Shown one piece after another: positions 22,201 through 64,000 of a DNA stretch of 64,000 nt; the first letter of the stretch is position 1; the number at the start of each line of letters is the position of its first letter. The DNA is taken from NCBI GenBank assembly GCA_963777605.1, contig CAVZRV010000006.1:1-64000 (forward strand), read 5' to 3'. The translations under genes and the position numbers were made by a program. The notes beneath the pieces are model-generated. The model saw only the letters and a program-made list of their open reading frames with translations, made no database searches and was not told the DNA's origin. This DNA comes from an uncultured Acidobacteriota bacterium. Lineage in GTDB: Bacteria > Acidobacteriota > UBA6911 > RPQK01 > JAPXNP01.

Positions 22201-22837
22201 ATGCTCAAGAGGCAGTCGAACAGCAAGAGACTGCTTTTATCACGCCCGTGCATCCCCTGGCGAGGCAAGCTGCGAAGGTCCTTGTACCGACCGGGACCAA
22301 GCCGCTCTCGGTGTTCCAGGCCTGCTATCAGGACCTTCCTCCCGGTCGATACCCGTTCGCGATCTACGAGTGGTGGTACAGGGGGGTCCGAGAGGACCTA
22401 TTGTTGCATCCGTTTGCCGAATCCTCCGAAGTCTCGAACACTTGCCTGAGTTGCTCGAACACGCACGCCCCGGGCACCTTCCAGCCGGGGAAATGCCGGG
22501 CCAGGAGGTTTTCGACGGGCTTGAGGCCGCTCACTACGATCAATGGGCCGCTGCTCGCGACCGTCACCGGGAGCAGAACCAACTGCTGGCGGACTACCGG
22601 CGAGAGAGCCTCAAAAGCAGCCATCGAGCCCGCACTGTCTATGCTCGAGAGAACAACTGGAGAGGGCTTCTGAAGAGAGAATTCGCCGCATGCGCCAAGG
22701 CACAAATTAGTACGGCCGAGGCGGACTTTGAGCGGCGTTTGGCTGAGCTCGACGAAGCGGTCCAACGCGCTGATCTGACCAGCGAAGCCGTAGCGTTCGG
22801 GGTTGTCATTGTCAGTAGGGAGCAGGGGGATGGCTAG
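19238..22837 (+). CDS. Swt1-like HEPN fused to SNF2 helicase (many frameshifts and one apparent in-frame stop)
   Basis: N-terminal WW..., [20 protein letters not shown]; then [52 protein letters not shown] across fragments. Confidence 0.8.
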
Positions 22838-26998: not shown

Positions 26999-27044
26999 CT
27001 GTTATTAATTGTGTCGATCACCCGACTCCCCGGGGTGATCAACC

Positions 27045-27890
27045 TTGGGAAGCGATCCTTACCAGCTGATTACGGAGCAAATCATCGAACGTTTGAAGCA
27101 GGGAGTCGTTCCCTGGCGCAAGCCCTGGTACACGGAGAACCCGAAGAATCTTCTGTCCAAGCGGGAATACCGCGGGGTGAATTCCCTGCTGCTGGGCTCC
27201 GCTCCGTACACTTCCCCCTACTGGCTGACCTATCGTCAGGCTCAGCAGTCGGGCGGGTACGTGCGGCGCGGGGAGCATGCGCAGCCGGTCGTTTTCTGGA
27301 AGTGGATCGCCAAGGAACGGGACGACAAAGAGATCGAATATCCGATCCTTCGCTTCTATCGGGTCTTCAACACCGAACAATGCGACGGACTCGAATCGAA
27401 GATTCCGGAATCCCCCATCGAAAGATTTGACTCGATCGATCGGGCCGAGGAGATCGTGAACGGAATGCTGAACCCGCCGCAGATCGTTCATGCGGGGCAA
27501 AGCGCTTTCTACCAACCGGCGGCAGATACAGTGACTATGCCGCCGAAGCATCGTTTCTTCAGTCTCGAGGAGTATTTTTCGACCCTGTATCATGAGCTTA
27601 CCCACAGCGTCGGCCACCCTTCTCGGCTTCATCGATTCGAGATCGACGGCACCTCGGCCTTCAGCTCCCGCGACTACAGCATCGAGGAGCTCATCGCCGA
27701 AATGGGGGCTTCGTTCCTCTGCAACGAGAGCCGCATTGCGCCACAGACGCTCGACAATTCGGTCGCCTATATCGGGAGCTGGCTGCACTCGCTGGAGAAC
27801 GACCCCAAGATGGTGGTCTACGCCGGTGCCCGCGCCCAGCGTGCTGCGGACTACATCCTGAACCTCGCTCCGTCCAGTCAATACGACTAA
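27045..27890 (+). CDS. ardC: ArdC-family antirestriction/ssDNA-binding protein with zincin-like C-domain
   Basis: PWRKPW, YRGVN, WLTYRQAQ, VFNTEQ, HELTHSVGHPSRL, YSIEELIAE, YIGSW; TTG start after a GGTGAT RBS. Confidence 0.92.
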   Translation: MGSDPYQLITEQIIERLKQGVVPWRKPWYTENPKNLLSKREYRGVNSLLLGSAPYTSPYWLTYRQAQQSGGYVRRGEHAQPVVFWKWIAKERDDKEIEYPILRFYRVFNTEQCDGLESKIPESPIERFDSIDRAEEIVNGMLNPPQIVHAGQSAFYQPAADTVTMPPKHRFFSLEEYFSTLYHELTHSVGHPSRLHRFEIDGTSAFSSRDYSIEELIAEMGASFLCNESRIAPQTLDNSVAYIGSWLHSLENDPKMVVYAGARAQRAADYILNLAPSSQYD

Positions 27891-31177: not shown

Positions 31178-31483
31178 ATGGAGCACTCCGAAGAAGGCCA
31201 GGCAAAACACTTTTCGAATCCGGACAGCGACGACGCCACCCGTGAACTCCTTCACTGGTCCCGGACCACTGCGGAGCTTCGTGAAGCCGTCTCTTACCTG
31301 ATCGCGCATCGCGAAGCCCTGCGGGACGCGGAACTTCAACGGCTTACCACAGAGGCCCGGACGCTTCTTTCACGGCTTTCGGAGCTCCGCCAGGAGGCCC
31401 TGCTCGAAGAGATCCGCTGTTTCAAGGACGTCTTGCTCCTGCACCGAAAAGCCTTGACGGAGCATGACCGCAAATCCGACTGA
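31178..31483 (+). CDS. Small helical hypothetical protein
   Basis: ORF between motif copy 3 and the ATPase, overlapping the ATPase start. Confidence 0.55.
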   Translation: MEHSEEGQAKHFSNPDSDDATRELLHWSRTTAELREAVSYLIAHREALRDAELQRLTTEARTLLSRLSELRQEALLEEIRCFKDVLLLHRKALTEHDRKSD

Positions 31484-32816
31484 GGAGAAACTCCGCAAAC
31501 TCGCTTCGGTCGATCCGGAGGCGGCCCGAAACGCCTGGTTGTTCTTTCTGGCCGCGGAAGGACCCGAACGGCAGGCGGCCGACGATCTCCTCGATCTGCT
31601 GCTCTATCAGGCCATCGACGCCGATTATGAGCGCCGCATCCTGCTCGATCCGCCCCCGGCCGGACTCTGCGACGGGCAGTATCGGCTCGGGACGGTGCTC
31701 TATCCCTCGGGTCGCGCCTTCGCTCCCTTTGGGATTCGGGAAGAGGAATGGATCAAGCACATTCTGATCGTCGGGATGACGGGAAGCGGCAAGACCAATC
31801 TCGGATTTCTTATCCTCCGCGAATTATGGCGTCAGCAAAAGCCAACCTTGGTCTTTGACTGGAAGCGCAACTACCGGGATCTTCTGCAACTTCCCGAGAT
31901 GCAGGAGGCCCGCGTTTACACGATCGGACGGGACATCCTCCCACTACGTTTCAATCCACTGCTTCCCCCGCCCGGGACCAAACCGGGCGAATGGATCATG
32001 CGCCTGGTCGATGTCGTCAAGCACGCTTACTTCGTCGGCGAAGGGGTCGAATATCTCCTCCGAGAAGCTATCGACCGCGTCTACCAGGAGTGCGGCCTTT
32101 TCGAAGAAACACCCCGCCAATCGCCCAATTTCTTCCAGGTTCGGGCCTATGTCACGGCCAAGCGGCTTCAGGGCCGTATGTCGCTCTGGAAAGCCTCAGC
32201 TGTTCGGGTCCTGGAGAGCCTCTGCTTTACGCACGGGCTGGGACCAGTCGTCAACACGAACGCGCCCTGGGCCCACCGGGAGATTCTGTCCCGGCCCGTC
32301 ATTCTGGAACTCGACGCACTTTCCGATGCCGACAAAATCTTCTTCACCGAAGCGCTCATCCTATGGATCTATGAAATGCGCAAGGCCGAGCCCAAGCGGG
32401 AGATCTTCAAGCACGCTCTTCTGATCGAAGAAGGACACCACGTGCTCTCCCAGGCCAAGGAGAACCACGAAGGGGTCGAGACGATCATGGAAACGAGCCT
32501 TCGTCAGATCCGCGAGTTCGGCGAAGCCGTGATCGTGATCGACCAGGAACCGACCAAGCTCAGCAACTCAATCAAGGCCAATACCTACACCAAGTTCGTC
32601 TTCAATCTCGGAAACGGCCGGGACAAGGAGGACATCGCGCGCTGTCTCGGACTCGATGACGAGGAGCGACTCTACATCGACCGCCTGGGCGTAGGCGAAG
32701 CCGTCGTCTCGACCAAGCGTCCGGGCCTGGTTCCGCTCCATGTGCGGAACCCTCTGGCCGGAGTCCGCAAAGGAATCATCACAGACCTTCGACTGTCGGA
32801 ATCTCGCGAGTCCTGA
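31464..32816 (+). CDS. HerA/FtsK/VirB4-like P-loop ATPase (DUF87)
   Basis: HILIVGMTGSGKT, VFDWK, FNPL, LLIEEGHH, RQIREFGE, IDQEP. Confidence 0.88.
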   Translation: MTANPTEEKLRKLASVDPEAARNAWLFFLAAEGPERQAADDLLDLLLYQAIDADYERRILLDPPPAGLCDGQYRLGTVLYPSGRAFAPFGIREEEWIKHILIVGMTGSGKTNLGFLILRELWRQQKPTLVFDWKRNYRDLLQLPEMQEARVYTIGRDILPLRFNPLLPPPGTKPGEWIMRLVDVVKHAYFVGEGVEYLLREAIDRVYQECGLFEETPRQSPNFFQVRAYVTAKRLQGRMSLWKASAVRVLESLCFTHGLGPVVNTNAPWAHREILSRPVILELDALSDADKIFFTEALILWIYEMRKAEPKREIFKHALLIEEGHHVLSQAKENHEGVETIMETSLRQIREFGEAVIVIDQEPTKLSNSIKANTYTKFVFNLGNGRDKEDIARCLGLDDEERLYIDRLGVGEAVVSTKRPGLVPLHVRNPLAGVRKGIITDLRLSESRES

Positions 32817-46102: not shown

Positions 46103-46789
46103 ATGGACACCACTAGTCTCAATGGACTGGTCTGGGCGGACGATGATTTTCCCCAGCGGGTCCGCATTCTCATTCGCACCATCGAAATCATCATGCCGGC
46201 ACCGATCGGCGTCAAGCGATCCACTCTGTTCGGGGATGGCTTCCACTCGATCGGAGAGATCTTCGTGGAAGACGCGGTCAACCGCCTTGAGCGGCTGGGG
46301 TTCATTCGGGTAGTCACCAAGGGGCGGGCGACGCTTTACCGCCCGGTCCTCAATGAAGTGACTGAAATTGCGATGAGCTTACAGTTCCACTCTCAATTCA
46401 GGGCAGCCCAGGGTGAGAGGGCTGCCCTGAGGTCCTCCAATCTGACAAGGAGGTACAGAGTTGAATCACAACTGGTTTATTCAAGGGTTAGTGATCCTGA
46501 TCTTGTGCTGGTTCCTCCGGGATCGCGTTCCGTATATCGGCAGACTTCCCGGAGATTTCGACATTGTCTTCGGCAACGTCCGGTTGTTCCTGCCCATCAT
46601 GTCCGGGCTGCTGCTCAGCCTGGCCTGGTCCGTCATCCGGGGGATGCTCGATGGACGGTAAGAAGCTTGCGCCCTTGGCTGCATTTCTTTTGCTCGTTCC
46701 CCCGATCGATCGGGTTTTCAACCGATTCAACCGGGAGTTCTTCGAAGCGGTCGGGCAGGTTGCCGACCTGCTCGGGGAACACTCGGTGA
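46103..46789 (+). CDS. Winged-helix-like protein (only the first ~90-100 aa credible; true stop likely near 46.4 kb)
   Basis: AAGGAGG RBS; 'VEDAVNRLERLGFIRVVTKGRATLY' wHTH wing. Confidence 0.5.
   Translation: MDTTSLNGLVWADDDFPQRVRILIRTIEIIMPAPIGVKRSTLFGDGFHSIGEIFVEDAVNRLERLGFIRVVTKGRATLYRPVLNEVTEIAMSLQFHSQFRAAQGERAALRSSNLTRRYRVESQLVYSRVSDPDLVLVPPGSRSVYRQTSRRFRHCLRQRPVVPAHHVRAAAQPGLVRHPGDARWTVRSLRPWLHFFCSFPRSIGFSTDSTGSSSKRSGRLPTCSGNTR
46398..46430. repeat. Perfect 12-bp inverted repeat / hairpin
   Basis: TCAGGGCAGCCC-9nt-GGGCTGCCCTGA upstream of the DUF2905-E2 genes. Confidence 0.8.
46461..46661 (+). CDS. DUF2905 family small membrane protein
   Basis: 'IGRLPGDF...LFLPIMSGLLLSL'; AAGGAGG RBS. 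Confidence 0.8.
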   Translation: MNHNWFIQGLVILILCWFLRDRVPYIGRLPGDFDIVFGNVRLFLPIMSGLLLSLAWSVIRGMLDGR

Positions 46790-46860
46790 TCACCATTGGT
46801 CTCGTGGCCCTGCTTCTTGGCAGTGGTCCAGACACTAAGGAGGAACAAGATGCCCTTTAA
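46651..46860 (+). CDS. Small hydrophobic protein
   Basis: Overlaps both neighbours; two hydrophobic stretches. Confidence 0.55.
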   Translation: MDGKKLAPLAAFLLLVPPIDRVFNRFNREFFEAVGQVADLLGEHSVITIGLVALLLGSGPDTKEEQDAL

Positions 46861-47316
46861 CTTGTTCGACTCCCCCCGCCACTATTCTCCGACGGAGATT
46901 CTCAGCCAGCGCTTAGATCAGTGGGGCTACCCCAGCGGCAATAGCTACTGGTGGCGCCGCTATCCGGACCGGGCGGTCGAGGAACACAAATAAAGATGCT
47001 CAACAGCACCAATGCGGTTCCCGATTTCCAAGGAGACTCCTTGGTCTGGGTCGAGGAAATCGAAACCGATTTCGGGCTCAGTACCTATTGGCAGTCGTTC
47101 GGGCCCGTACTTCCCCTCGGATCGGCCGAAAGCGTTCGCGCCGGAAGTCGACTGCCACAAACACCGCAACTCCGACAAGTCCCTGTGCCTGGCCCACCCC
47201 TCTGAACTCGGCGCGGCACTACCGTCCTCGAGATTAGAAACATGGCGTGTGCATGGTTCTTCGCCTACGACGTGTACTCGAGAACCGGGGAATGGCCCGC
47301 TGCGGAGGCGGATTAG
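46850..47316 (+). CDS. Prokaryotic E2 (ubiquitin-conjugating-like) protein (frameshifted)
   Basis: AAGGAGG RBS; joined frames give 'YFPSDRPKAF...HKHRNSDKSLCLAHPSE...TTVLEIRNMACAWFFAYDVYSRTGEWPAAEAD*'. Confidence 0.65.
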
Positions 47317-47325
47317 GAGGATCGG

Positions 47326-47580
47326 ATGCCTTTCAAATTTAGTCTCACTTTCTGGGCTGACCGGCCATTGATCATCACCATCACGGACGGTCAGAGATCG
47401 GTGAGGGTGGACTACTTCCCGGAACCGGAATACGAGTACTACGAAGATTACACGTACTTCCCGGAGACGACCCGCCCACTTACTTCTTTGAGGAAGAACC
47501 CGGACTCCTGCCGGCGCAACGCTACCGGCGAGGAAATCCACGAGAAGGGAGGTGAAAAGAAATGCCCGGTGTCAATCTGA
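47326..47580 (+). CDS. Small peptide A in the E2-JAB-E1 operon
   Basis: AGGAGG RBS; beta-rich N-terminus and Tyr/Glu-rich middle. Confidence 0.55.
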   Translation: MPFKFSLTFWADRPLIITITDGQRSVRVDYFPEPEYEYYEDYTYFPETTRPLTSLRKNPDSCRRNATGEEIHEKGGEKKCPVSI

Positions 47581-47777
47581 ATGCCTTGCGAGACCGTTTA
47601 CAGTCACGGTCAAAAGTCGGAGTCAATAAGAACGGAACTCTGGAACGCGCGATCCGCAAAACGACGGCTCGAAGCAGGGTCCGACGACCCTGCAACCAGC
47701 CCGTTCTTGAGTGGCCGTTCGAAGCGGGGGACTCCCGATGGCCCCCGCTTTCAGAAACCAGGAGTCGAAACTCATGA
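47562..47777 (+). CDS. Small peptide B in the E2-JAB-E1 operon (may end at TGA 47708-47710 if one indel is corrected)
   Basis: GGAGGTGA RBS; MPGVNLNALRDRLQSRSKVGVNKNG...; a hairpin follows at 47722. Confidence 0.55.
   Translation: MPGVNLNALRDRLQSRSKVGVNKNGTLERAIRKTTARSRVRRPCNQPVLEWPFEAGDSRWPPLSETRSRNS
47722..47750 (+). terminator. GC-rich hairpin (terminator or stability element) after peptide B
   Basis: AAGCGGGGG-11nt-CCCCCGCTT followed by TC. Confidence 0.5.
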
Positions 47778-48439
47778 GGAACTATCTCTTTAACCAATCA
47801 TCCGCATCGACCATGCTGGTTGAGTGCTTCCGGCGAGGTGACCAGCGAGAGGCGGGCGGTATCCTCGCCGAACGCGACGGTACGCGGGTGATTACCGACG
47901 CCGTGCCATCCACCGAACATGCCGAGCGCCAACGTTACACCTACTACCAGAGCCCGGAAGACGTCGCCTATCTGAACAACGTTCTCAGAAAGCTCGAGAC
48001 ACAAGGTCGAAGATTCTGCGGCTACTTCCATCGCCACCCCTCCGGTATGACCGGCTTGAGCCAGGGCGATCTGGACAGCTGTCGCCAGATCCTGAAGGAT
48101 CCGCACTATTTTCTGCCGGACGGGCTCTTGATGCTGATCATCACCGATTCGGAACGTTCCCGGATCCCGATTTTCCCGTACCTGGTCCGGCTCGAGGAGG
48201 ACCGTCCGGTGGTCGAACCCGTCACCATGACGATCCTTCCGGATGATCAGGTCGACACGATTCTTTCTTATCTCGAAGTGCCTCAGACAAACCGAAACAG
48301 CAAGGAGTTTTACGATGAAGAAGTGGTTCATTCTGGATCAGGCCCTCTCCGGCCAGTCTTCCGACCTGTACGTCCTGGAAACCGAGGACGGGCATATCAT
48401 CAGTTCGACGCCGCTCGACGCGAGCTTCAAGAAGGTTGA
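47774..48439 (+). CDS. JAB/MPN+ (Prok-JAB) isopeptidase
   Basis: 'REAGGIL' and the full JAMM motif HRH-PSGMTGL-S-QG-D. Confidence 0.88.
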   Translation: MRNYLFNQSSASTMLVECFRRGDQREAGGILAERDGTRVITDAVPSTEHAERQRYTYYQSPEDVAYLNNVLRKLETQGRRFCGYFHRHPSGMTGLSQGDLDSCRQILKDPHYFLPDGLLMLIITDSERSRIPIFPYLVRLEEDRPVVEPVTMTILPDDQVDTILSYLEVPQTNRNSKEFYDEEVVHSGSGPLRPVFRPVRPGNRGRAYHQFDAARRELQEG

Positions 48440-49459
48440 GCAGGTCCGGGTCCCGTCCCAGACCGATTTTCAGGCTCGCAATGCCGGCCTCGTCGATCCC
48501 TCACGGCTCCAGGAGCATCGCATCCTGATCATCGGTGTCGGCAGCGGCGGTTCGAAGACCGCGACGAGCCTGGTGAGATCGGGGGCGATCAATCTGACAC
48601 TGGTCGATTTCGACCGGGTCGAAGTCTCCAACCTCTGTCGCTCGGAGTACGAACTGCCCGATGTCGGCGAGCTGAAGGTCGAGGCCTTGAAACGGCGCCT
48701 GTTGCGGATCAACCCGATGGCCCGGATCGAGGTCATCAGTAAGAACCTGCATGAGATGAGCCGCACTGAGGTCGAAGAGCTAATCGCGGGGCACGATCTC
48801 TGCTTTGAGTGCACCGACGATCCCAAGACCAAGCTGATCATCAACGCGGTCGCCTACGATCAGATCCCGGTGATCTACCCGGCCGTCTACGACGGGGGCA
48901 AGGGGGCGAGGTGCTCTACACCCTGCCCGGCATCACGCCCTGTTATCAGTGCATCATGGGCTCGATTCTTCCGCAGATGACCGAGGTCAAACGGGGGGAT
49001 TGGGACTATACGACCGGCACGCTGAAGCCGATGGCGGGGCTGAACTCCCACATCGACGTGGTGGTTGCGCGAAGTATCGATATCGCCCTGGCCATTCTGT
49101 CGGCAGGAACCGAGACGGATCGCTCGGACAAAGTCCTGGTGCCGGGTTCTTCCATTCTCTTTATCGGCAACGAGAGTGGGTTCTTCATTTTCGACGAGCC
49201 TTTCCAGGAGATCTGGGGGGAGACGGAAATCGACCCCGACTGTCCCTGTCAGCAAGCCCCCAGCCGGGAACCCGAGGGCAAACGCGATGAAGCGATCGAT
49301 GCCGAGGCTATCGCCTCGAGACCGGAAGATCCTCAACCTGTTGCGGCTGAGCCCGCACACGACGTCCCAGCTCGCCCGTCTCCTGTTTCCGAACCGGAAG
49401 AAGGCGAGTCAGCGGCTTCGGCAACTGACCGCGGCCGGCCACCTGAAACGGTTCAGTAG
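48315..49459 (+). CDS. ThiF/E1-like activating enzyme (one frameshift)
   Basis: IIGVGSGGS, LVDFDRVEVSNLCR, KVEAL, ECTDD, PCYQC...DCPC. Confidence 0.88.
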
Positions 49460-50034
49460 CCCAATCGTCCACCCGACCGGCCGGCCCGAGTTCGTCTATA
49501 CGGGCCGGTCGGGTGCCGCGCAGCTATCACCTGATCCGACACGCACTTCAGGTGTCCGAGGTAACCGTGATCCTGCACGAATGGTTAGCTGAGAACCCGG
49601 AATTTACGGGCCGTCTCTACTGGCCGCAACAGGTCATACTGACGGGCGGGATCATTCCGGATGGGATCTTCACCGTGGCCCAAGGTGATCGGATGCTGCT
49701 CTTCCTGATCGAGGTGGATCGGGGCACGGAATCAAAGGCCGGTGCAGACTACAGCGTCCGTCGGAAGCTCATCGCCTATGGCGAATACTTCGATTCGGGA
49801 AGGTTTGCGGAGGATTACGCGATGCTCGGGACGTTCAACTCCTTTCGAGTGGTCTTCGTCTCTGTATCGGAATTGGCGTTGCCGGGGCTGCTCCGAATCG
49901 CCGCGGAAACCCAGACTGATTTCGTCTACTTCAAGCCAATGTCAAAGCTCACTCCCAAGACCTTTCCCGAGTCATGGGCTACGGCAAACCAGGATCGAGC
50001 GGACCTCTTTGGACGCACCGAGAGACAGACATGA
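49287..50034 (+). CDS. Replication-relaxation (Replic_Relax/MOB-L-like) relaxase (one frameshift)
   Basis: 'LSPRDRKIL..TTSQLARLLFP..ASQRLRQL' wHTH, 'RHAL', 'IPDG...FLIEVDRGTE..KL.AY'. Confidence 0.82.
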
Positions 50035-52313
50035 AAGACACCCGCCCCATCGAACTTGCCCGCCATGCTTTCGAAGGGCTCCTGCACCAGTCTCTGCTCG
50101 CGGAAGGCTCGAAGGGATGCGACGCGACTCTCCACTCCTACCCCGTCGATCTAGAGCCCCATTTCGGGCGCTTTGATCCGTCGCGCATACACGCTTCGAA
50201 GATAAGCCCCGGGATTCCGGAAGATCCGGTTCCCGAACGGGCCTGGTCGTCCTTTCGCCTCCGGCTTCCCCGTCAGTCGATCGCTCCCAATCAGGTCGTT
50301 GCCGCCATCGAGGCCTCGAGCATTCAAACGACCCGCTTCGCGTTCGAGATCGTCGCTGATGCCGGAAAGGCCGACGTGTATCTTGTGGCCGACGATCCCG
50401 AGTCCGCTTCCTTCATGCGGGATGCGTGGCTCAGTCACTGTCCGGGCGTGGTCCTGATTCCCTGGGAGGATCCCTGGAAAGACCTGTTGTCGGAGACTGA
50501 TCTCCGAGTTTGGGAAGCCTATCCCCTCCCCCTTACTCCCGACGGCTGGCCGTTCCCCGCTCGCCGAACTCTTCCCTTGCTTCTGCGCCAGGCGGCACGC
50601 CTTCGCGCGGGAGTCCGTTTGGTCTATCAGATTCTCTTTCAGTCGGTCCGCCACGACTGGCATCGAAACATCTACCTGCTGACGGCGGCCGAAACCACCG
50701 CCCAGGGTCGCATCCCCTGGCGGCATACCACACAAGCAGCGATCAAGCCGCCCGATCAGCCTCTGGTTGCTGCGATTCTCCGGATCGCACTCCTCGGAGG
50801 AGCCGACTCGCCGGCCGTCGATCCGGCACGCTACTGGGCGGGTTTCAGTCAAGGCGGCCGCCCCTTGCAGGTCAGAAGACCTGTCCAGTTCCGGGAGGTT
50901 CTCGACCAGCCTGCTCTCCTCTCGATGCTCTCCCGGCGGCGCACCCATGCACCAGGCGTCCTGCTGACGGCGGAAGAACTGTCGGCCTTCATTCAAGTGC
51001 CTGAGCAGGCAACCACGACACTCCGCATCGACTGGACCCGAGGGCTCGAAGTCCCCACGCGCTTTCAGGCTTCGGGGCGGCTTCTCGGGTTCAACTACTC
51101 GCACGCGGAACCCACGCCGGTTCGCCTGCCCGATACGGAACGAAACCGCAGCATCTATCAGATCGGCTCCTCCCGAAAAGGCAAGAGCAACTCGATCCTG
51201 CATCAATGTCTCGAGCTGGCGCGATCCGGCAGTGGGCTTGCCCTGATCGATCCGCATCGATCAACCGCCTTCGATCTGGTCCGTGCCCTTCCGCCCGAGG
51301 CTCTCGACCGAGTTGTGTGGTGCGACTTTCAAGACCCGGACTTTGTCCTGGACTATAACCCCTTCGATGCTCCCGACAGCTTCGGCCGCCGGGCTACGGA
51401 GTACGTCCACAGTTTCAAGCACCTCTTCGAGGCAGGCTCGTTTCACCGGATGGGTCGCATCCTGGGCTTGGGCGTCCATGCGCTGTTCGACCTCAAGGAG
51501 AATCTCGCCACCTTCTCGCGCCTCTTCGCCGCTACCGCAGAGGGCGAGCGCCTGCGGGCACGCGTCATCGCCCGATCCCAGAATCCCGATGTGCAACGCT
51601 TCTTCGCTGATGAGGTCCGATCGCTTCCCTCAGAAGCCATCACACCGATTCTTAATCGGATTTCGACGCTCTTGCTCGATGAGAGCGCGCGCCGCATTTT
51701 CGAGCGTCGAGAGAACAAGCTCGACATCCCCACCATTCTTCGCGAAGGACGGTTGTTGGTCGTCGCCCTGCCGTCGAATATCGATGTCGCCAACATTGTC
51801 GGGGGGATGCTTCTCGCCCAGATCCAAAAGGCAGGCCTTGCTCGCATCGGGCGTGATGAGCCCGATTTCTACGTCTTTCTCGACGAGTTTCATCGGTTCT
51901 TGAACTCGGCCAAGATCCTGGAGAGCCTCCTCAACGAATGTGCCAAGGCAGGCCTCTTTCTCTGCATGGCGCATCAGGAAACCGGCCAACTGAGTACCGA
52001 GCTCTTCCGAGCGGCCCTGACCGCTCCGCTCCTCATGGTCTTCGGCGTCAACTACGAAGATGCCCGCAAGTTCGTGCCGATCTTCAACGGTCGCATCCAG
52101 GTCGATGATCTCCTGTCGCTCCGGGTCGGAGAGGTCTGCGCCCGGCTCGATCAGGACATCGTGGATTTCCGTTGCCCTCCGCCACCAGCGGATCTCTCGG
52201 AAGAACGCGCCCGTCACGTGATTGAAGCAAGCCGGCGCCTCTACTACACACCGATCCATGAAATCGGGCGGTCCCGAAAGACCACTCAATCTCGACACTT
52301 GGACCATTTCTAA
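50031..52313 (+). CDS. Type IV coupling protein-like ATPase (TraD/TrwB/VirD4 family)
   Basis: ATGA overlap with the relaxase; GSSRKGKS, LIDPH, YNPF, FLDEFH, AHQETGQL. Confidence 0.82.
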   Translation: MKDTRPIELARHAFEGLLHQSLLAEGSKGCDATLHSYPVDLEPHFGRFDPSRIHASKISPGIPEDPVPERAWSSFRLRLPRQSIAPNQVVAAIEASSIQTTRFAFEIVADAGKADVYLVADDPESASFMRDAWLSHCPGVVLIPWEDPWKDLLSETDLRVWEAYPLPLTPDGWPFPARRTLPLLLRQAARLRAGVRLVYQILFQSVRHDWHRNIYLLTAAETTAQGRIPWRHTTQAAIKPPDQPLVAAILRIALLGGADSPAVDPARYWAGFSQGGRPLQVRRPVQFREVLDQPALLSMLSRRRTHAPGVLLTAEELSAFIQVPEQATTTLRIDWTRGLEVPTRFQASGRLLGFNYSHAEPTPVRLPDTERNRSIYQIGSSRKGKSNSILHQCLELARSGSGLALIDPHRSTAFDLVRALPPEALDRVVWCDFQDPDFVLDYNPFDAPDSFGRRATEYVHSFKHLFEAGSFHRMGRILGLGVHALFDLKENLATFSRLFAATAEGERLRARVIARSQNPDVQRFFADEVRSLPSEAITPILNRISTLLLDESARRIFERRENKLDIPTILREGRLLVVALPSNIDVANIVGGMLLAQIQKAGLARIGRDEPDFYVFLDEFHRFLNSAKILESLLNECAKAGLFLCMAHQETGQLSTELFRAALTAPLLMVFGVNYEDARKFVPIFNGRIQVDDLLSLRVGEVCARLDQDIVDFRCPPPPADLSEERARHVIEASRRLYYTPIHEIGRSRKTTQSRHLDHF

Positions 52314-52324
52314 GGAGAACCACC

Positions 52325-52933
52325 ATGCCGGAGATTCAATCCGTCGACCAGATTATGGCCCTCCTCCACATCGACGTCATCGGACAGATCGAGGCGGCGC
52401 ATGACATGATCCGTCAATCCGTACAGATTGAGCCGACCGTTGCGAGCTACCCCGAGTTTCAGGAAACTGTTGGCGACTACGTCCGCTACCACAACGCCAT
52501 GTGGCACGGCGTCGACCCCGGACAGGACCGGGCGTGGGGGCAAGCCCGCGCGGCCATCGATGAGCAGATGCGACCCGAGCCGACGCTTGCGAGAATTCGA
52601 GGTTTTCTCGACGCCCAGGGAAGCTATGTCCAGGCGATCAAGAACGGGCTCACCGGCCGTCACGGAGGGATGATCGGTGTCATCGATACCATCGCTGAGC
52701 AGATCAAAAAGGAAGCCGTCAGCCAGTGGGTTCGCTCGGTCTTTCTGACCCACATCAATCCGCTTGATTTCGACCGGAAGGTGGAATTCGCCCGGGAGTA
52801 TCTCGCAACCTACGGCGCACTCTTGCTTCCCAATGAAACGACGATGTCGCCCTACGAGCTGGCGGCGCAGATCGAGGTCCTCTTGGAGACCCACGTCCGA
52901 TTGGTGAACCAACTGCGGGACCGGTTACAGTAG
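52325..52933 (+). CDS. Hypothetical helical protein
   Basis: AAGGAG RBS; 202-aa ORF in the operon. Confidence 0.8.
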   Translation: MPEIQSVDQIMALLHIDVIGQIEAAHDMIRQSVQIEPTVASYPEFQETVGDYVRYHNAMWHGVDPGQDRAWGQARAAIDEQMRPEPTLARIRGFLDAQGSYVQAIKNGLTGRHGGMIGVIDTIAEQIKKEAVSQWVRSVFLTHINPLDFDRKVEFAREYLATYGALLLPNETTMSPYELAAQIEVLLETHVRLVNQLRDRLQ

Positions 52934-53172
52934 GTCGCCTTCTTCCGGCCCTACCAGCCGGGTGCTTCCGTACCTAAACGGTTGCAATATCTCACGTTCG
53001 GGAGCATCGCTTTGCTGTTCCCCTCAGGTCGAGGACCGCGATCATTCTGGCGAAGCACAAAGAGCCGAAGGCCATCAGCATGACAACACCCTTCCGACAT
53101 CTGCAATTTCGGCAGAGACTCGGGGATCATCAAGATCCGCCCGACGTCTCGAAACGACGAGATGCGTCAACC

Positions 53173-53182
53173 TGCACTACAA
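53173..53182 (+). promoter_or_regulatory. TGCACTACAA motif copy 5
   Basis: Exact 10-mer 45 nt before the primase ATG. Confidence 0.7.
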
Positions 53183-53217
53183 ACCATAAGAACGGGAAGA
53201 CGGAATCCAAAGAGAAC

Positions 53218-54279
53218 ATGGCGGACTATCTGCCGGAGCATGCCGCGGCCACCTACCGGTTACTCTCCCCTGAGTCTTCCGGCTTTCTCGAGCTGAACGC
53301 CTTTCACCCGGACTATCGACCTGGCCGCGAAAACACCGAGTGGAACCGCCAGAGAGACACCTGGCCACGCCTTGCCTATGTGAGTTCGGAGGAAGAGTTT
53401 TTGGACTTCGTCGGACAATACGTCGGCGAACGCATGGTCTGTTGCGGCCTCAATCCCCGGCCCGCCATTCGGCGTAACGACTCCGGGTATCTTCGTCCGT
53501 CGCGTGAGTCGGACATCCAGGAGGGCCGGGCGCTGCTACTCGATCTCGATCCCATCGGTTCCGAGGCTCCGGATGCGGCTAGCCTGGAGCGCCTTCTCGC
53601 GCGGGCAAACACCTACTTCCAGGATTTCGGTCTCAAGAGACCCAGTCAGGCCAGCTCCGGCCGGGGATACCACCTGATGGCGGTCTATTCCCCCATTTCG
53701 ACAGTCGAGACCCCGGACTTGAAGCAACGCGTTCGCGCGTTTTCGGATCAGTTTCGCGACGCACTCGGAAGCGAGATCGGCGATGCCGGCCTTCGGCTTG
53801 ACGGCACCTACGATCTCAGACGACTCGTCAAGGTCTACGGGACCGCGAAGCCCGGCGGACCCGTCAGTCGGCTCCTGCGAGCAGAGTACGGTGCCGATCT
53901 CGCGCTTCGAGAAAAGCTCCTTTCCTACGACGTCTCTTGCCGTTCCAAGAAAGCCGAATCGGCGGCAGAAGCAGTGGATTCCGTCACAGTTCAGCGCAGG
54001 CTCCCAGACTGGTTCCCTTCTCTTCTGGATGATCAACGGGTCGCCAACCTCTGGAACGGAGAAGGAAAGCCGGAAAGTCTCGACTGCTCCCGTTCCGGTT
54101 ATGACTTCAGCCTTGCCCGGACGTTGATCGCTCTCGGCCACAACACGGACGACATCGCCACGATCCTCGCGCTTCGTCCAAAAGGGGCCTTCAAATCCCG
54201 TGGCCGCAGTCCCGAGTATCTCGAGACCACCATCTCCCGCGCCCGTCAAAGCCTTGCTCGTCCCAGGCTTTCTCGTTGA
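53218..54279 (+). CDS. RepB'-like AEP DNA primase
   Basis: GLNPRP, LLDLD, SSGRGYH, DLRRLVKVYGT, and a C-terminal helical bundle 'SRSGYDF...YLETTI'. Confidence 0.75.
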   Translation: MADYLPEHAAATYRLLSPESSGFLELNAFHPDYRPGRENTEWNRQRDTWPRLAYVSSEEEFLDFVGQYVGERMVCCGLNPRPAIRRNDSGYLRPSRESDIQEGRALLLDLDPIGSEAPDAASLERLLARANTYFQDFGLKRPSQASSGRGYHLMAVYSPISTVETPDLKQRVRAFSDQFRDALGSEIGDAGLRLDGTYDLRRLVKVYGTAKPGGPVSRLLRAEYGADLALREKLLSYDVSCRSKKAESAAEAVDSVTVQRRLPDWFPSLLDDQRVANLWNGEGKPESLDCSRSGYDFSLARTLIALGHNTDDIATILALRPKGAFKSRGRSPEYLETTISRARQSLARPRLSR

Positions 54280-54657: not shown

Positions 54658-55782
54658 ATGAGTGGACTCACAAAAACCCTGGAAAGAAATAACGGAAACG
54701 GCGACGGGGCTCCTGCTTCCGGGCAGCCCGGATTCGACGGTGGCGCTCAACTCGATGCCGTAGTGGACTCTGCCGTCCGACCGTCGGAAGACTTGCGGCG
54801 AATCGGCCTCGCCGATTTCCACCTCGTTCTGTACGCCTCAATGGGGCTCGAATTCGACTTCAGCAATCCACTCGAAGACCAGCTGCACGAACTCAGTAAC
54901 GCCGACCTGGGCATCCCGACTCCCATGTTGAATCCGACCAGCCAACGGCCATGGTCCTCGGGCAAAGAAGCCCCGTCGAAACGAAGGAGGGCATCGCTCC
55001 TCGTCTCGGCATTCAATTTAGGCGTGGCATCTTTCAGGTACCCCACGACTCACTACGAGATCGTACGCCGTCTTCTGGAACGGACCGACTACCGGGTAAT
55101 CCTCCGAACCAACGATGCGTCGATTGCAGACAAGGCGTGGCTGGACCTGTTGCTGGCCCATCGTGAGCGGACCACGGTCGGGCTGGTCATCCCGACTCTG
55201 AATGACGACGTCCTCGCAATCCTTGATCCAGACGGTTCGAGCCTGCCGGATCGCTTTCGGGCCTTCAAGTCGCTGCACCAGGCCGGAATTACAACGTGCG
55301 CTTTCCTCTGCCCTGTGCTCCCCGATATTGTGCCGCACCTCGACGCCGTCTTCCGAGAGATTCAGGTCGAACGACTCACGACGATCTGGGCGGCTCCATT
55401 TCACCAGAACTACTGGCAACGGATACAGAAAGCATTCGGCAAAGAATCACCCGAGCATTCCTGGTTCACAGCGGTCTTTAAGCACGGACACGATGAGCGC
55501 TGGAGTCGTTTCGCCGCCGATTTCTACCTGCGCCTCGCTCTCAAGGGCCGGGCCGAAGGGTGGTTCTCGAAAGTGCGGTTCCTCCTCGACGAACAACGGA
55601 TCCGCCCGCTCGATGCACTCCTCTTCGACCAGCTTGAGCGAGTCGTGTTGCTCGGCCCAACCGATGCAGACGGCTACAGCCAGAACCCAAGTATCCGCAG
55701 GCAGCAAGAGAAAGCCGCATTCTGGGACAAGAATGGGCTGGAAGTTCCAAAGGGAAACCCAAAATGGGCACGCCCCTCTTGA
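54658..55782 (+). CDS. SplB/COG1533-like radical-SAM-fold protein lacking CxxxCxxC
   Basis: 'VILRTN', 'GLVIPTL...LDPDGS..DRF.A..LHQAGI.T.AFLCPVLP'; no Cys triad. Confidence 0.6.
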   Translation: MSGLTKTLERNNGNGDGAPASGQPGFDGGAQLDAVVDSAVRPSEDLRRIGLADFHLVLYASMGLEFDFSNPLEDQLHELSNADLGIPTPMLNPTSQRPWSSGKEAPSKRRRASLLVSAFNLGVASFRYPTTHYEIVRRLLERTDYRVILRTNDASIADKAWLDLLLAHRERTTVGLVIPTLNDDVLAILDPDGSSLPDRFRAFKSLHQAGITTCAFLCPVLPDIVPHLDAVFREIQVERLTTIWAAPFHQNYWQRIQKAFGKESPEHSWFTAVFKHGHDERWSRFAADFYLRLALKGRAEGWFSKVRFLLDEQRIRPLDALLFDQLERVVLLGPTDADGYSQNPSIRRQQEKAAFWDKNGLEVPKGNPKWARPS

Positions 55783-56216
55783 TGACAGAGGATTCCGTGG
55801 CTGAGAACTGGCCTCACGAAACTTCTCCGACAGTCACCGATTCAGGATCGCCGGCGGCGTCAAAAAGGGTTGACAGAAGGAGGCACAAACTCGACATAAT
55901 GTCCCCCGAGGAGGTTGCCCTGTTCCTCCGCAAGAGCTTGAGTTGGGTTTATAAGCACGCTGAGGAATTGGGCGCTGTGAAGCTCGGGGGTTCCTTGCTG
56001 TTCCCCAGCAAGGAGGACCTCTATGAGCGTTTATTCAACGAAAGGCAAGGGGTGGCGATACGACTTCAAGCTGAACGGCCGTCGCTACACCGGAGCCTGG
56101 TTCAAGACAAAGAGAAAGGCCACCGAGTCCGAAGAGGAAAGGAGGAAAGAAGTACTGAAACCCGAGGAGGTCGAAAGTCAGACCCCAACCGACATGGCCT
56201 TCTTGGAACTGGTTAA
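55764..56216 (+). CDS. Excisionase-like HTH_17 protein overlapping the integrase (core from ATG 55899)
   Basis: 'IMSPEEVALFLRKSLSWVYKHAEELGAVKLGGSLLF'. Confidence 0.7.
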   Translation: MGTPLLMTEDSVAENWPHETSPTVTDSGSPAASKRVDRRRHKLDIMSPEEVALFLRKSLSWVYKHAEELGAVKLGGSLLFPSKEDLYERLFNERQGVAIRLQAERPSLHRSLVQDKEKGHRVRRGKEERSTETRGGRKSDPNRHGLLGTG

Positions 56217-57120
56217 TCACCGCCTCGATTTTGTGCAGGCGTTCCGATCGGATCACTACTATCAGGACACCTGTTGCATGGCGAGACGTTGGGTTGTCGA
56301 ATGGGATGGCCGGCTGTGTGGTGAGTTTACCCAGGAAATGATCGAGAGTTTCTTGATGAAGCGTGCCAAGGTATCCCACTATGCGGCAAACATGGATCTG
56401 AAACTGCTCCGGGCGCTGTTCAACCATGGAATCAAGCGCCGGTTCATCCGTGGCAATCCGACGACCGGTGTCGAGTTCTTCCCGGTCGAGAAGCGAATCA
56501 AGTACGTCCCTCCCGCGGAAGATGTGCGGCGGTTGATCTGGAGCGCGGAAAAGGACGATCGCGATTATCTGATCGTGATTGCCGAAACGATGGCCCGGGT
56601 CGGAGAGGTGAACCGCCTGGTCTGGGACGATGTCGATTTCCGGGAACGAACGGTTGTCCTTTACACGCGGAAAAAGCGTGGAGGTCACCTGACGCCTCGC
56701 AAGGTCCCGATGACCGACCTGCTCTACCGAACCCTCCACCGTCGATTCGAACAGCGGGATCAGGCGAAGCCCTGGGTCTTCTGGCATCGCTACAAGGACA
56801 AGAAGAAGGGCGTCCTGGTGGAAGGACCATACCTGAGGCGAAAACGATTTCTCAAGAGCCTCTGTGAGAAGGTGGGCGTCCGCCCGATCGGCTTCCACGC
56901 CCTTCGCCACAGCGGGGCGTCGATACTCGAACACGCCAATGTCTCGATCAGTACGATTCAGCGCTTACTCGGTCACGAGAACCGCACCACGACCGAAATT
57001 TATCTCCACAGCCTGGGACAGCCGGAGCGGGAAGCCATCCGGATTTTCGAAGGTTTGAGAGAAAAGTCCCACACAGAGTCACACACAGAAGCGAACGATG
57101 CGCAGGAGCAATCTGCGTAA
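56023..57120 (+). CDS. Tyrosine recombinase / integrase
   Basis: AGGAGG RBS; 'TMARVGE' (R), 'HALRH', 'LGHE...TTEIY'; N-terminal arm-binding-like 'WRYDFKLNGRRY'. Confidence 0.95.
   Translation: MSVYSTKGKGWRYDFKLNGRRYTGAWFKTKRKATESEEERRKEVLKPEEVESQTPTDMAFLELVNHRLDFVQAFRSDHYYQDTCCMARRWVVEWDGRLCGEFTQEMIESFLMKRAKVSHYAANMDLKLLRALFNHGIKRRFIRGNPTTGVEFFPVEKRIKYVPPAEDVRRLIWSAEKDDRDYLIVIAETMARVGEVNRLVWDDVDFRERTVVLYTRKKRGGHLTPRKVPMTDLLYRTLHRRFEQRDQAKPWVFWHRYKDKKKGVLVEGPYLRRKRFLKSLCEKVGVRPIGFHALRHSGASILEHANVSISTIQRLLGHENRTTTEIYLHSLGQPEREAIRIFEGLREKSHTESHTEANDAQEQSA
57065..57088 (+). repeat. Tandem 12-bp direct repeat, putative integrase arm-type sites
   Basis: AGTCCCACACAG AGTCACACACAG about 50 bp from the att/tRNA end. 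Confidence 0.5.
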
Positions 57121-57134: not shown

Positions 57135-57210
57135 TGGTGGGTCGTGTTGGATTCGAACCAACGGCCCTCTGATTAAAAGTCAGATGCTCTGCCAACTGAG
57201 CTAACGACCC
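57135..57210 (-). tRNA. tRNA-Lys (anticodon UUU)
   Basis: GGGTCGTTAGCTCAGTTGGCAGAGCATCTGACTTTTAATCAGAGGGCCGTTGGTTCGAATCCAACACGACCCACCA: 76 nt, cloverleaf, encoded CCA. Confidence 0.97.
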
Positions 57211-62029: not shown

Positions 62030-62298
62030 TGGCCGTGTCACAGGCGTCCCCGCCTGTGACCATTGGAATGCATTTCATCGATTATCTGTGGTCACAGCCG
62101 GGATTTTGGTGCCCCCTCGTTGGAGGAGCGCAGACATCTTCACCTGTGACTCTGGGAACGCACTTCATGGTTTCTCTCTGGTCACGGCCGGGATTTTGGT
62201 GCCCCTTCGTTGGGAGGAGTGCAGGCATCCTCGCCTGTGACTCTGGGAACGCACTTTATGGTTTCTCTCTGGTCACGGCCGGGACGGCCGTGCCACCT
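62030..62298. repeat. Three ~90-bp tandem REP/BIME-like palindromic units between convergent genes
   Basis: CCTGTGAC...GGTCAC(A/G)GCCGGGA recurs at about 62053, 62143 and 62234; the last copy overlaps the GH2 3' end. Confidence 0.8.
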
Positions 62299-64000
62299 TC
62301 TTCAGCAAGGTTTCTGAAGAGTTTTTCCGGGGGAGTCTCGCGGTTGTTGAAAGGTCTCAAGTAGATCGTGTACTCGTACTTTTGGGGTAGCACCCGGTAG
62401 GGCTTGAGGGTTTTGATGGCCGTGCAGCCGACGCCGGAAACCGCATGGTCAACATTGAGGGTGATCCCCTCCCCCTTCTTCAGTTGATAGGGGTACTCCG
62501 CCCGGTAAAGGTTGTCGGTCGCAAAGTCGTGGGCGCTCACGTTGAGGAGATCGGTTCCCGCGAAGAAAAGCCCAACGCCATCGTCAGCAGTCAGGGTTCC
62601 CCAGCGGACATCAGTTCGATTTCCATAATCCTGGGGGATCAGATAGGGTTCATACATCTTCTCAATCACTGATGAGTAAACGCCTGTTTTTGCACCGCTT
62701 TTTCGATCCGGCCAGGTTTCGAACGGTCCTCGTCCAAACCAGGTCAACCGGCGCAGAGAGCTGTCGAGAATCGCCGAAACACCAACCCTCCCCAGCCAGT
62801 CGGGCATCTCTCCTTCGGGCTCAAGCGTGTGCGTTATCGAGACCCCTCCGTCGGGAAGGAAGCGGTATCGAAAACCGGAACGAAACCGGGTACTCCCCTC
62901 CGGGTTCTTCAACTCGGTTTCCACCCGGACCACCACCGCCCGCTCAGTCCGGGACTCAACCTCGAACTTTCTGACGGTCCGGGCCAGTGAGTCTATCCCG
63001 AGGGAGAACCACTGTTCCGCCATTCGCGGCTCTCCCCACGAGCGTTCGAACTCGTTCGCGACCGGAGGCCGGAATACGCTTTCCTGAAGGCCTCTTACGA
63101 TCAGTTCTCTGCCCTGCCATGTCAAAGATTTCAGAGACCCGGATCGCGGGTCCACGACCCAACGGTAAGACCCTCCTTCGATCGAAAGCCCCTCTGGTCG
63201 CGACATCACCCGGAATCTGGAACCGGGTGCGGAGCCAGGTTCTCCAGCCACCAGGGCGGGCGCGTTGAGAGGGATCTCTTCCCAAGCCACTTCGTGCCCT
63301 TCTCCGGCCCAAGGAGTAGCTTGACTCAGCAGGAACTGAACCAGGAGGCGATCCTGTCGGGCGCGATCGTCGTCAGTGGGGAGTGAAAAGGGGAGGTCAA
63401 TCTCGCGTGACTCTCCCGGTGCGAGGCTCACTTCAAGTTCTCCCGAATCGATCTTTCTTTCGTCGCGGTAAAGCGTCCATCGAGTCTGAAACTCCGAAAG
63501 ATTGGTGAACCCAAACCGGTTGGTAACCCGTATCCGGTTCGGGCGGGAATCGGAATGCGCGACACTGATCGGCTGCGGGCTCTTCTTCAGTTGCTGGAGT
63601 TCGGGTTGCGCCACCCGATCGGGCCAGACCAGTCCGTAACTGCGGGCCCCGATACCGAGCGAAAAGAAATCTCCCAGGTCCTTGAGAGTGTCGAAATTCA
63701 GATCCAGAACAATCTGTTTCTCATTTATTGCAGAACCTTTAGAGATCTCTTCTTCAGTTAAAGCACGAGCATAAATCCGGACGTTGTCGAAAGCGGCATC
63801 GACCAGGTACCCATCATGCTCCTGCCCAATCATGTCCGCCTTTCTCCCCACGTTCACGGCAAATGCCGAGCGGTCGATGGGGCCAGAATGGCTCCTCGTT
63901 GCGGCGGGGTTGCCGTCAATGTAGAGGCAAAGCCCTGTCCCGTCATAGACGCCGCTGAGTCGGTGCCAACCATAGCTCCAGCCGGCGGGAATGGGTGCTT
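62256..64000 (-). CDS. GH2 beta-galactosidase with LamG insert (5' end beyond window)
   Basis: 'GLVWPDR..QP.L', 'NRFGFTNL', 'WFGRGPFETWPDRK', 'YLIPQDYGNRTDVRW'; frame open to the window edge. Confidence 0.9.
   Translation of the reverse strand, partial: APIPAGWSYGWHRLSGVYDGTGLCLYIDGNPAATRSHSGPIDRSAFAVNVGRKADMIGQEHDGYLVDAAFDNVRIYARALTEEEISKGSAINEKQIVLDLNFDTLKDLGDFFSLGIGARSYGLVWPDRVAQPELQQLKKSPQPISVAHSDSRPNRIRVTNRFGFTNLSEFQTRWTLYRDERKIDSGELEVSLAPGESREIDLPFSLPTDDDRARQDRLLVQFLLSQATPWAGEGHEVAWEEIPLNAPALVAGEPGSAPGSRFRVMSRPEGLSIEGGSYRWVVDPRSGSLKSLTWQGRELIVRGLQESVFRPPVANEFERSWGEPRMAEQWFSLGIDSLARTVRKFEVESRTERAVVVRVETELKNPEGSTRFRSGFRYRFLPDGGVSITHTLEPEGEMPDWLGRVGVSAILDSSLRRLTWFGRGPFETWPDRKSGAKTGVYSSVIEKMYEPYLIPQDYGNRTDVRWGTLTADDGVGLFFAGTDLLNVSAHDFATDNLYRAEYPYQLKKGEGITLNVDHAVSGVGCTAIKTLKPYRVLPQKYEYTIYLRPFNNRETPPEKLFRNLAEEGGTAVPAVTREKP

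Follow-up and report, generated by a model that had tools for sequence, protein, structure and literature searches.

A conserved E2–peptide–JAB–E1 gene cassette on a tRNA-integrating mobile element of an uncultured Acidobacteriota bacterium

In the E1/E2 conjugation pathways characterised so far, the cargo is, to our knowledge, either a β-grasp protein or, in CBASS (anti-phage systems that signal through cyclic oligonucleotides), the tail of a folded enzyme. We know of no E1 or JAB in the CBASS with a stand-alone E2 (CdnG-E2). Short peptides are handled by other routes: the ThiF-fold enzymes MccB and PaaA adenylate short ribosomal peptides that are not β-grasp proteins (MccA and PaaP, respectively), the products being antibiotics and no E2 or JAB taking part, while Pup, a small and intrinsically disordered protein tag, is ligated by the glutamine-synthetase-like PafA and not by an E1 and E2. 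The present analysis concerns a cassette of separate E2, JAB and E1 genes, with a conserved gene for a short peptide among them, found in a stretch of 64,000 nucleotides of an uncultured Acidobacteriota bacterium (assembly GCA_963777605.1, contig CAVZRV010000006.1, positions 1 to 64,000), hereafter the window. The window genome is a 6.73-Mb assembly in 53 contigs (completeness 96.7, contamination 5.7).

Five types of E1/JAB operon (6a–6e), some of them on conjugative elements, were described by Iyer, Burroughs and Aravind (2006, PMC1779556); the article also reports that the regulatory module of type II CBASS (Cap2 and Cap3) often lies on mobile elements, and suggests that operon types lacking a ubiquitin-like protein (Ubl) might use ThiS or MoaD of the host. 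Cap2 of type II CBASS conjugates a cGAS-like protein, according to a preprint (Chambers et al. 2023). The Bil and Bub systems are described by Ye et al. (2024, PMC11601596), in whose account type I Bub (6E.1) consists of BubAB, BubCD and BubE, BubCD being a JAB on the N-terminus of a homodimer-type E1 that has a conserved Tyr and lacks a crossover-loop Cys.

The order E2, peptide, JAB, E1 is kept in all six loci compared, wherever the genes are visible. These loci are the window itself, L010 (on a contig of the genome G270) and L012 to L015, which came from a metagenome scan. In the window, the cassette and one further open reading frame (ORF) read as follows.

46850..47316, + strand: E2-like gene (UBC fold) with catalytic-type His and Cys, located by tblastn with the L010 E2 and broken by at least three frame changes.
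47326..47580, + strand: ORF of 84 amino acids ("peptide A"), lineage-specific and outside the conserved cassette.
47562..47710, + strand: gene of a conserved polar peptide of 52–54 amino acids, intact in L010, L013, L014 and L015; the window copy changes frame once, near 47648.
47774..48439, + strand: JAMM/JAB metallopeptidase, intact, with its start by alignment at M22.
48315..49459, + strand: E1, a ThiF-type adenylating enzyme whose Zn site is a Cys tetrad (ThiF 1.8e-30), shifted in frame once at 48899 and conserved as far as about 49250.

Judged from its relatives and from a predicted structure, the product of the E2-like gene is a UBC-type E2 that would act through a thioester. Its ATG at 46850 is preceded by the Shine–Dalgarno (SD) sequence AAGGAGG, and the window motif HKHRNSDKSLCL holds a His and a Cys that align with H106 and C114 of an intact relative. 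A profile built from three intact E2s retrieved 204 cluster representatives at E ≤ 1e-3, of which 60 reach ≤ 1e-10 and 21 reach ≤ 1e-30, and the resulting alignment of 137 rows comprises 134 of the best 150 of the 204 matches together with the three seed E2s, 16 short fragments and one multi-hit protein of 1153 amino acids having been dropped. Across these rows P90, P94, H106, C114 and W137 are at least 90% conserved. Among the same sequences, 27 match UQ_con, 19 Prok-E2_B, seven E2-ntca, six UEV and three Prok-E2_A; no Pfam or NCBIfam E2 model matches the window or L010 protein itself, and the link to curated E2 profiles runs through relatives and through PADLOC E2 models (about 3e-6). An AlphaFold2 (AF2) model of the L010 E2, made from a 69-row alignment (predicted local distance difference test, pLDDT, 93.9; predicted template-modelling score 0.87), has the UBC fold, with an N-terminal helix, a four-strand meander and a C-terminal helix. 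In a Foldseek search of the PDB with this model, the top matches were 8hsb_B and 8yjy_B, the E2 of the Serratia CdnG-E2 complex (E 1.6e-4, template-modelling score 0.58), followed by Ube2w, UbcH7, UFC1, Ubc9 and UEV; the matches listed are all E2, UEV or UFC1 chains.

By its alignment, the JAB is a JAMM peptidase with an intact metal site, the residues E...HxH...S..D being invariant in six sequences. Its scores against Pfam Prok-JAB, 17.3–23.7 bits (17.3 for the window protein), lie under the cut-off of 25, and the L010 JAB matches the PADLOC JAB models of CBASS at up to 3.5e-13. The E1, likewise assigned by sequence, belongs to the ThiF-type adenylating enzymes and has a Cys tetrad for Zn. 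Its L010 homologue matches ThiF at 1.9e-33, and 47 clusters were found at E ≤ 1e-20, most of them 45–57% identical; in 48 aligned E1 sequences the GxGxxG motif, R111 (the Arg finger), D170 (Mg-binding), C212/C215 (CxxC) and C313/C315 (CxC) are invariant. Near-invariance extends to C110, the neighbour of the Arg finger, and to Y194 of the crossover loop, a loop without Cys outside the CxxC. These proteins have 319–378 amino acids (343 in L010) and a single ThiF domain. By sequence, the nearest solved structures are MoeB, ThiF, MccB (about 3e-11), TcdA, Uba4, SAE2, Uba5, Cap2 and PaaA (4e-8), and against PADLOC the L010 E1 matches the Cap2-type E1-E2 model at 1.2e-34. That the N-terminal domain of the E1 might be a dead JAB domain was considered and dropped, an hhalign comparison with the JAB alignment giving a probability of 0.1. 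An earlier note on this DNA, made from the letters alone, had proposed an E2-like gene with a candidate catalytic Cys, an intact JAMM isopeptidase and a ThiF/E1 with Zn-binding Cys pairs; all three assignments hold, the first under both profile and structure search, while the JAB start moves from 47711 to 47774.

Two features of the E1 deserve separate mention. The near-invariant C110 stands directly before the Arg finger in the motif N-[LI]-C-R-S (near 48640 in the window), at a position where ThiF and MoeB have a Gln, and it may be the nucleophile of this E1 in place of a Cys of the crossover loop. The JAB and E1 ORFs overlap by 125–194 nt in three loci (48315–48439 in the window, 7281–7468 in L010 and 8524–8717 in L013); in L012 and L014 the two genes lie about 30 nt apart, and one protein, P0186, is a JAB–E1 fusion. 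Such an overlap could reflect dual coding or a route to JAB–E1 fusion.

The peptide ORF lies between E2 and JAB in all five loci that cover the interval (the window, L010, L013, L014 and L015), each time behind a strong SD sequence. In the window, its true frame runs in frame 0 from 47562 to about 47648 and then in frame 2 from 47648 to 47710. A profile search gathered 13 protein clusters of 52–61 amino acids, and 16 positions are invariant in 15 sequences (M1, D4, L5, N6, L12, Q15, G19, G24, P31, N33, G35, T44, L46, P48, R50 and F51). The invariant residues include the motif T-x-L-[EQD]-P-x-R-F, which is followed by a variable tail of 0–3 residues (YIS, FH, FM, G or F after the Arg-Phe). No match was found for the peptide in Pfam, NCBIfam or PADLOC, and no usable one in the ESM Atlas; no fusion of the peptide to E2 or another protein was seen among the proteins gathered. 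An AF2 model of the peptide alone (pLDDT 59) has a helix at 5–13 and a hairpin at 18–28, the rest being unstructured. A complex prediction with two copies of the E1, the peptide and ATP scored 0.29 and 0.06 against a mark of 0.32, and was counted neither for nor against binding. In related contigs, two extra bases at 47703–47708 change the end of the peptide from ..PARS to ..PARF(Y/F)E, and one related contig end reads ..RFYE and then a stop; with the two extra bases the peptide ORF of those related strains might continue as far as the start of the JAB.

Of the two tiny ORFs singled out in the earlier note, this one is conserved and the other, the 84-amino-acid peptide A, is absent from L010, L013, L014 and L015, where the gap between E2 and the peptide measures 16–130 nt. 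Since peptide A is missing in all four of the other loci that cover the gap, it is not part of the core. It has no family match in Pfam, NCBIfam or PADLOC; one related contig carries an extra base after 47465, and a loose contig end at 47330 encodes an N-terminus resembling its own. In agreement with that note, the ORFs that were scanned (window, L010 and L013) included neither a recognisable β-grasp Ubl nor a recognisable cGAS/DncV-like nucleotidyltransferase (CD-NTase).

Among 5.8 billion proteins, the JAB has four cluster-level relatives, and among the 401 genomes of the phylum a single strong match, in G270 (1.6e-37, 42% identity), seven further matches at E 2e-4 to 9e-4 being left uncounted. 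The E2 profile found matches in the class (137 genomes) only in G000 and G270, plus a weak one in G486. A search of IMG/VR with the E2 alignment found no cassette on viral contigs, and a search of plasmids with the E1 gave no cassette either, only two ThiF genes, both of Bradyrhizobium and 27.7% identical. In the window genome the JAB and the gene of the Replic_Relax family (below) are both single copy.

The cassette sits on a tRNA-integrating mobile element. On the forward strand, positions 46.4–57.2 kb form a co-directional row of genes that ends in a tyrosine recombinase abutting tRNA-Lys(ttt), and an integrase adjoins a tRNA at all three element ends that are visible, namely tRNA-Lys(ttt) in the window, tRNA-Ser in L010 and tRNA-Pro in L013. 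The genes of the row on either side of the cassette, and the tRNA, are the following.

46461..46661, + strand: small membrane protein (DUF2905-like), TM1, the first conserved gene upstream of the cassette, with 66.7% identity to the L010 protein.
46651..46860, + strand: second small membrane protein, TM2, from an ORF call with an inferred start at 46651.
49287..50034, + strand: Replic_Relax family protein with a winged helix-turn-helix and a PD..E.D-like motif (PF13814 in two pieces, 3.6e-5 and 1.8e-8), with a frame change near 49502.
50031..52313, + strand: P-loop ATPase of 779 amino acids, intact, resembling type IV coupling proteins (T4CP) or HerA/FtsK, with 52% identity to the L010 homologue over 436 amino acids.
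52325..52933, + strand: conserved protein of 202 amino acids, with 49% identity to a 206-amino-acid protein at the same position in L010 and no family match in Pfam, NCBIfam or PADLOC.
53080..54279, + strand: possible primase-like protein, a weak call (RepB_primase_C 0.0013, below cut-off), not in L010.
55764..56216, + strand: HTH_17 protein, excisionase-like, a weak call (PF12728 3.8e-4, below cut-off).
56023..57120, + strand: tyrosine recombinase (integrase), Phage_integrase 5.1e-23 in Pfam.
57135..57210, − strand: tRNA-Lys(ttt), the probable integration site, called by ARAGORN.

In L010 the row reads DUF2905 membrane protein, second small membrane protein, 159-amino-acid E2-like protein, 53-amino-acid ORF, JAB, 343-amino-acid E1, Replic_Relax, ATPase, 206-amino-acid protein, integrase and tRNA-Ser, all genes being whole except the ATPase, which is split in two. 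From TM1 to the 202-amino-acid protein the block is collinear between the window and L010, so that the cassette stands in line with Replic_Relax and ATPase in both; in L012 it does so with Replic_Relax (5.5e-14). Because the whole block has been inherited together between elements at 27–52% protein identity, the cassette is read as part of the element backbone and not as swappable cargo. Upstream of the cassette, the window and L010 have both small membrane proteins and L015 has one of them. The L010 counterpart of TM1 matches PF11146 (DUF2905) at 2.2e-12. Hydrophobic ORFs like TM2 precede E2 in L010 and L015, and one is merged with E2 in the protein P0029; tblastn gave no significant match, the likeness being one of position and composition only.

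The Replic_Relax scores exceed the cut-off (35.1 bits in the window and 58.1 in L010, where PF13814 is matched at 1.6e-15), and the protein is a candidate relaxase by family only. The earlier note had described the E1 as overlapping a relaxase, itself joined by ATGA to a TraD/VirD4-like ATPase. Both junctions are as described, the E1 ORF overlapping that of Replic_Relax and the stop of the latter sharing ATGA at 50031 with the ATPase start, and the P-loop ATPase stands; the coupling-protein label rests on weak matches below threshold. For the ATPase no Pfam family was found at E ≤ 0.01, no PDB match by sequence and no hydrophobic N-terminal membrane segment by eye, and a single-protein search of genome contigs returned no relatives. 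The L010 homologue gives weak matches only: the NCBIfam VirD4-like CD1115 model at 3.4e-5, far under its cut-off, other VirD4/TraG/TraD profiles, all below threshold, and PADLOC mad8 at 5.2e-6. As for the order E2-pepA-pepB-JAB-E1-relaxase-T4CP, about which the note had asked in homologues, the core E2-peptide-JAB-E1 is kept, peptide A is not, and Replic_Relax directly follows E1 in three of the four loci that reach so far (the window, L010 and L012), L013 being different.

The remainder of the window has features of its own. A homologue of the L013 ATPase lies at 31653–32576, within a DUF87/TraG-like ATPase (31458–32813), and one of the NikA-like gene of L010 at 34679–34918; in view of these two, the element possibly extends well upstream of 46 kb. 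Positions 1–35000 are rich in genes of conflict and of mobile elements, including ArdC with MPTase (27039–27887), Nmad2/Nmad3 (11902–13457), SNF2 helicases and AAA_15/AAA_21 ATPases, and the island may span most of the window. Between 35400 and 42400 there is a strong strand asymmetry (GC skew −0.21 to −0.29, AT skew +0.3 to +0.4), with long open frames in all three forward frames and without a Pfam match. There, the product of an ORF from 35430 resembles a β-rich protein that is secreted by way of a signal peptide, and the frame-1 ORFs beyond it are interrupted by single stops at about 39229, 40096 and 40900; the region may be one large surface-protein gene broken by indels. Finally, an 83-nt unit occurs three times in tandem at 62041–62304, at a spacing of 90–91 nt, with 72–100% identity to the reference copy and an inverted motif within each.

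The window copy of the cassette is broken by single-base indels in E2, the conserved peptide gene, E1 and Replic_Relax, with at least six breaks within about 2.7 kb. A tblastn of the intact 159-amino-acid L010 E2 runs through the frames +2/+1/+2/+1; that of the L010 E1 changes frame once, at 48899; that of Replic_Relax once, near 49502; and the change in the peptide gene was placed by eye against relatives. Logan contigs of four other public runs were compared over 46400–52400. An extra A after 48899 occurs in contigs of three of the four runs, one of these contigs being otherwise 100% identical over 150 nt, and the base at 49502 is missing in contigs of two of the four; both sites are short homopolymers, and some of the compared contigs are 99–100% identical nearby. 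Other indel differences lie at 47465, 47703–47708, 47731, 47739, 49613/49617 and 50527/50567. Elsewhere in the window, the genes of a DUF2130 protein (6003–6738, − strand) and of an SNF2 helicase (20416–22670, + strand) are likewise split over two frames, which points to an indel-prone assembly. Given these split genes and the near-identical contigs without the E1 and Replic_Relax indels, the frame breaks are very probably errors of assembly. The number of breaks across four genes would also fit a decaying pseudogene cluster, with real breaks and a cassette that is not functional in this strain, and the compared contigs are from related strains and not the source reads, so that real mutations in the window strain are possible; yet the JAB and the 2.3-kb ATPase are free of breaks, each break is an indel of a single base, nonsense codons are absent, two of the indels are absent from near-identical contigs of other runs, and other genes of the window are split in the same way, and we consider decay improbable.

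What the three enzymes are, that the peptide is conserved and in which order the genes stand is shown by the results above. As the best explanation of the whole, we tentatively propose, with slightly less than even confidence, that in this conserved block on a tRNA-integrating element the peptide is a dedicated fourth component of the cassette, most likely its substrate. That the peptide is the conjugated tag of the cascade, as its gene context suggests, is possible, at a chance clearly short of even. In such a cascade, the JAB would trim the variable C-terminal tail of the peptide or cut at a conserved Gly, the E1 would adenylate the carboxylate thus exposed, and the acyl group would pass to the Cys of the E2 and then to a lysine of the target; because the crossover loop of the E1 holds no Cys, transfer to the E2 may be direct. 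The JAB would also undo the modification. The Arg-Phe motif and the variable tail behind it have the appearance of a processed end; cleavage might alternatively fall at the invariant P-x-N-x-G. A fuller version, in which a disordered, non-β-grasp modifier of 53 residues would be processed by the JAMM enzyme, activated by the E1 and passed on through an E2 thioester, the element backbone using it to tag its own DNA-processing machinery or host proteins in transfer or establishment, we regard as doubtful; such a tag would be comparable to Pup in form and to ubiquitin in chemistry.

Several points weigh against the peptide as substrate and against a role in transfer. Neither Gly nor Gly-Gly stands at the C-terminus of the peptide; the conserved motif in that part ends in Arg-Phe, and no E1 is known to us that would act on an end of that type. 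The peptide-alone model predicts no β-grasp fold, in line with the earlier note, for which an ordinary ThiS/MoaD-type Ubl would have spoken against its proposal; the model is of low confidence and says nothing on the role of the peptide. L012, L014 and L015 are close kin, so that the six loci amount to about four lineages, a small sample. In L013, E1 is followed not by Replic_Relax but by a 96-amino-acid membrane protein, a Cys-rich protein and a DUF87/HerA-like ATPase, and further on by a toxin–antitoxin pair, an excisionase-like gene, the integrase and tRNA-Pro; the link is thus not strict to this relaxase and ATPase pair, and what the cassette is genomically linked with is integrative elements and their P-loop ATPases. 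No direct repeat of the tRNA end, as expected of an attachment site, was found in the window, L010 or L013, where the far ends may lie off the contigs. A defence role is at least as likely as one in transfer, since all the characterised bacterial E1/E2/JAB systems in the cited papers act in phage defence.

The last point may be carried further, to a cassette that is anti-phage defence cargo in the manner of CBASS, Bil and Bub, with no part in the transfer of the element. The bacterial E1/E2/JAB systems covered by the cited papers are defence systems or predicted to be so, PADLOC CBASS models match all three enzymes, and the rest of the window is rich in genes of defence or conflict type (ArdC, Nmad2/3, SNF2, AAA_15/21). 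Nevertheless, the cassette is collinear with the Replic_Relax, ATPase and 202-amino-acid protein block and about as diverged from L010 as these are, which fits a backbone better than the cargo of a hotspot; ORF overlaps span both the E1/Replic_Relax junction and that of Replic_Relax with the ATPase, and no gene for an effector was recognised, so that we rate pure cargo as rather unlikely. The peptide, for its part, might not be conjugated at all and might act as a cofactor, adaptor or inhibitor, the true substrate being the C-terminus of another protein, as with the CD-NTase of type II CBASS, or a ThiS/MoaD-type protein of the host. This would suit the absence of a C-terminal Gly and the best scores of E1, E2 and JAB, which are against models of the Cap2/Cap3 type, from systems in which, by the cited work, a protein C-terminus is conjugated; the speculation on endogenous ThiS/MoaD for Ubl-less operons, by Iyer et al. 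(PMC1779556), points the same way. Against it, no gene other than those of the enzymes and the peptide occurs in all five loci covering the position of the peptide, the neighbours downstream of E1 differ in L013, and no candidate partner with a conserved C-terminus was identified; we hold it to be rather unlikely, at much the same weight as the peptide as tag. Least weight, below that of the peptide as tag or as cofactor, goes to a pathway for a ribosomally synthesised and post-translationally modified peptide, in which an E1 like MccB or PaaA would modify the peptide, the JAB would be a leader peptidase, and the small membrane proteins would serve export or immunity. MccB and PaaA are indeed among the PDB sequence relatives of the E1, and genes for a small peptide and for two small membrane proteins lie adjacent, but MoeB and ThiF score equally or better and the Cap2-type model far better, the peptide is conserved over its full length without a variable core, and there is no role in such a pathway for a conserved E2 that carries a catalytic Cys, which makes this reading very unlikely.

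If the peptide is indeed the substrate, E1/E2/JAB chemistry would not depend on the ubiquitin fold, since the one constant partner of the enzymes here is a short, polar and probably disordered peptide. The steady place of the cassette among genes of integration and DNA processing raises the question of whether protein tagging serves the life cycle of the element and not only phage defence. As the cassette is small and L010 and L013 carry intact copies, both ideas are testable by heterologous expression.

No published description of this cassette was found in a non-exhaustive full-text literature search, and its likeness to known systems is partial in each case. Type II CBASS, with Cap2 as an E2–E1 fusion and Cap3 as JAB, is similar in that, of the defence models in PADLOC, its own score best, at 1.2e-34 for the E1, 3.5e-13 for the JAB and about 3e-6 for the E2, in having no β-grasp Ubl and, by Iyer et al., in its frequent location on mobile elements; the present loci differ in that no CD-NTase or other nucleotidyltransferase was seen among the ORFs scanned and no effector gene was found, and in that the genes of E2 and E1 are unfused in every locus, the peptide and JAB genes lying between. 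The E2 of the CdnG-E2 type (PDB 8hsb/8yjy) is the best structural match of the E2 model, yet at 15% identity, and there is no cyclase here. Type I Bub, as given by Ye et al., shares the close association of JAB and E1 (overlapping here, or fused in P0186), the lack of a crossover-loop Cys outside the CxxC and the nearly invariant Tyr (Y194), but fuses its β-grasp Ubl to an E2 that uses Ser, whereas the cassette has an E2 with a conserved Cys and no Ubl; the Bub protease, a DUF6527 protein, had no match in Pfam scans of the window and L010. BilABCD (6C), from the same paper (PMC11601596), likewise unites in a single operon the four roles of small protein, E2, JAB and E1, but BilA is a β-grasp Ubl and the Bil E1 is multidomain (IAD-AAD-CYS), whereas the cassette peptide matches no Ubl family and is not predicted as β-grasp, and the cassette E1 has a single adenylation domain. 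Operon type 6D (PRTRC) fits poorly, PRTRC_ThiF scoring 25.2 bits against a cut-off of 144.75 and no other PRTRC model (ParB, Prok_Ub) matching. MccB and PaaA are sequence relatives of the E1 and a precedent for a ThiF-fold enzyme with a short non-β-grasp peptide as its substrate, but the cassette has an E2 and a JAB as well; Pup resembles the peptide as a small and probably disordered protein, but no PafA/Dop gene is present here. In PMC1779556, none of the operon types 6a–6e combines a separate E2, a non-β-grasp protein of 53 amino acids, a JAB and an E1. With a conserved non-β-grasp peptide in the place of the Ubl, the tag that the enzymes of the cassette use may be of a new kind.

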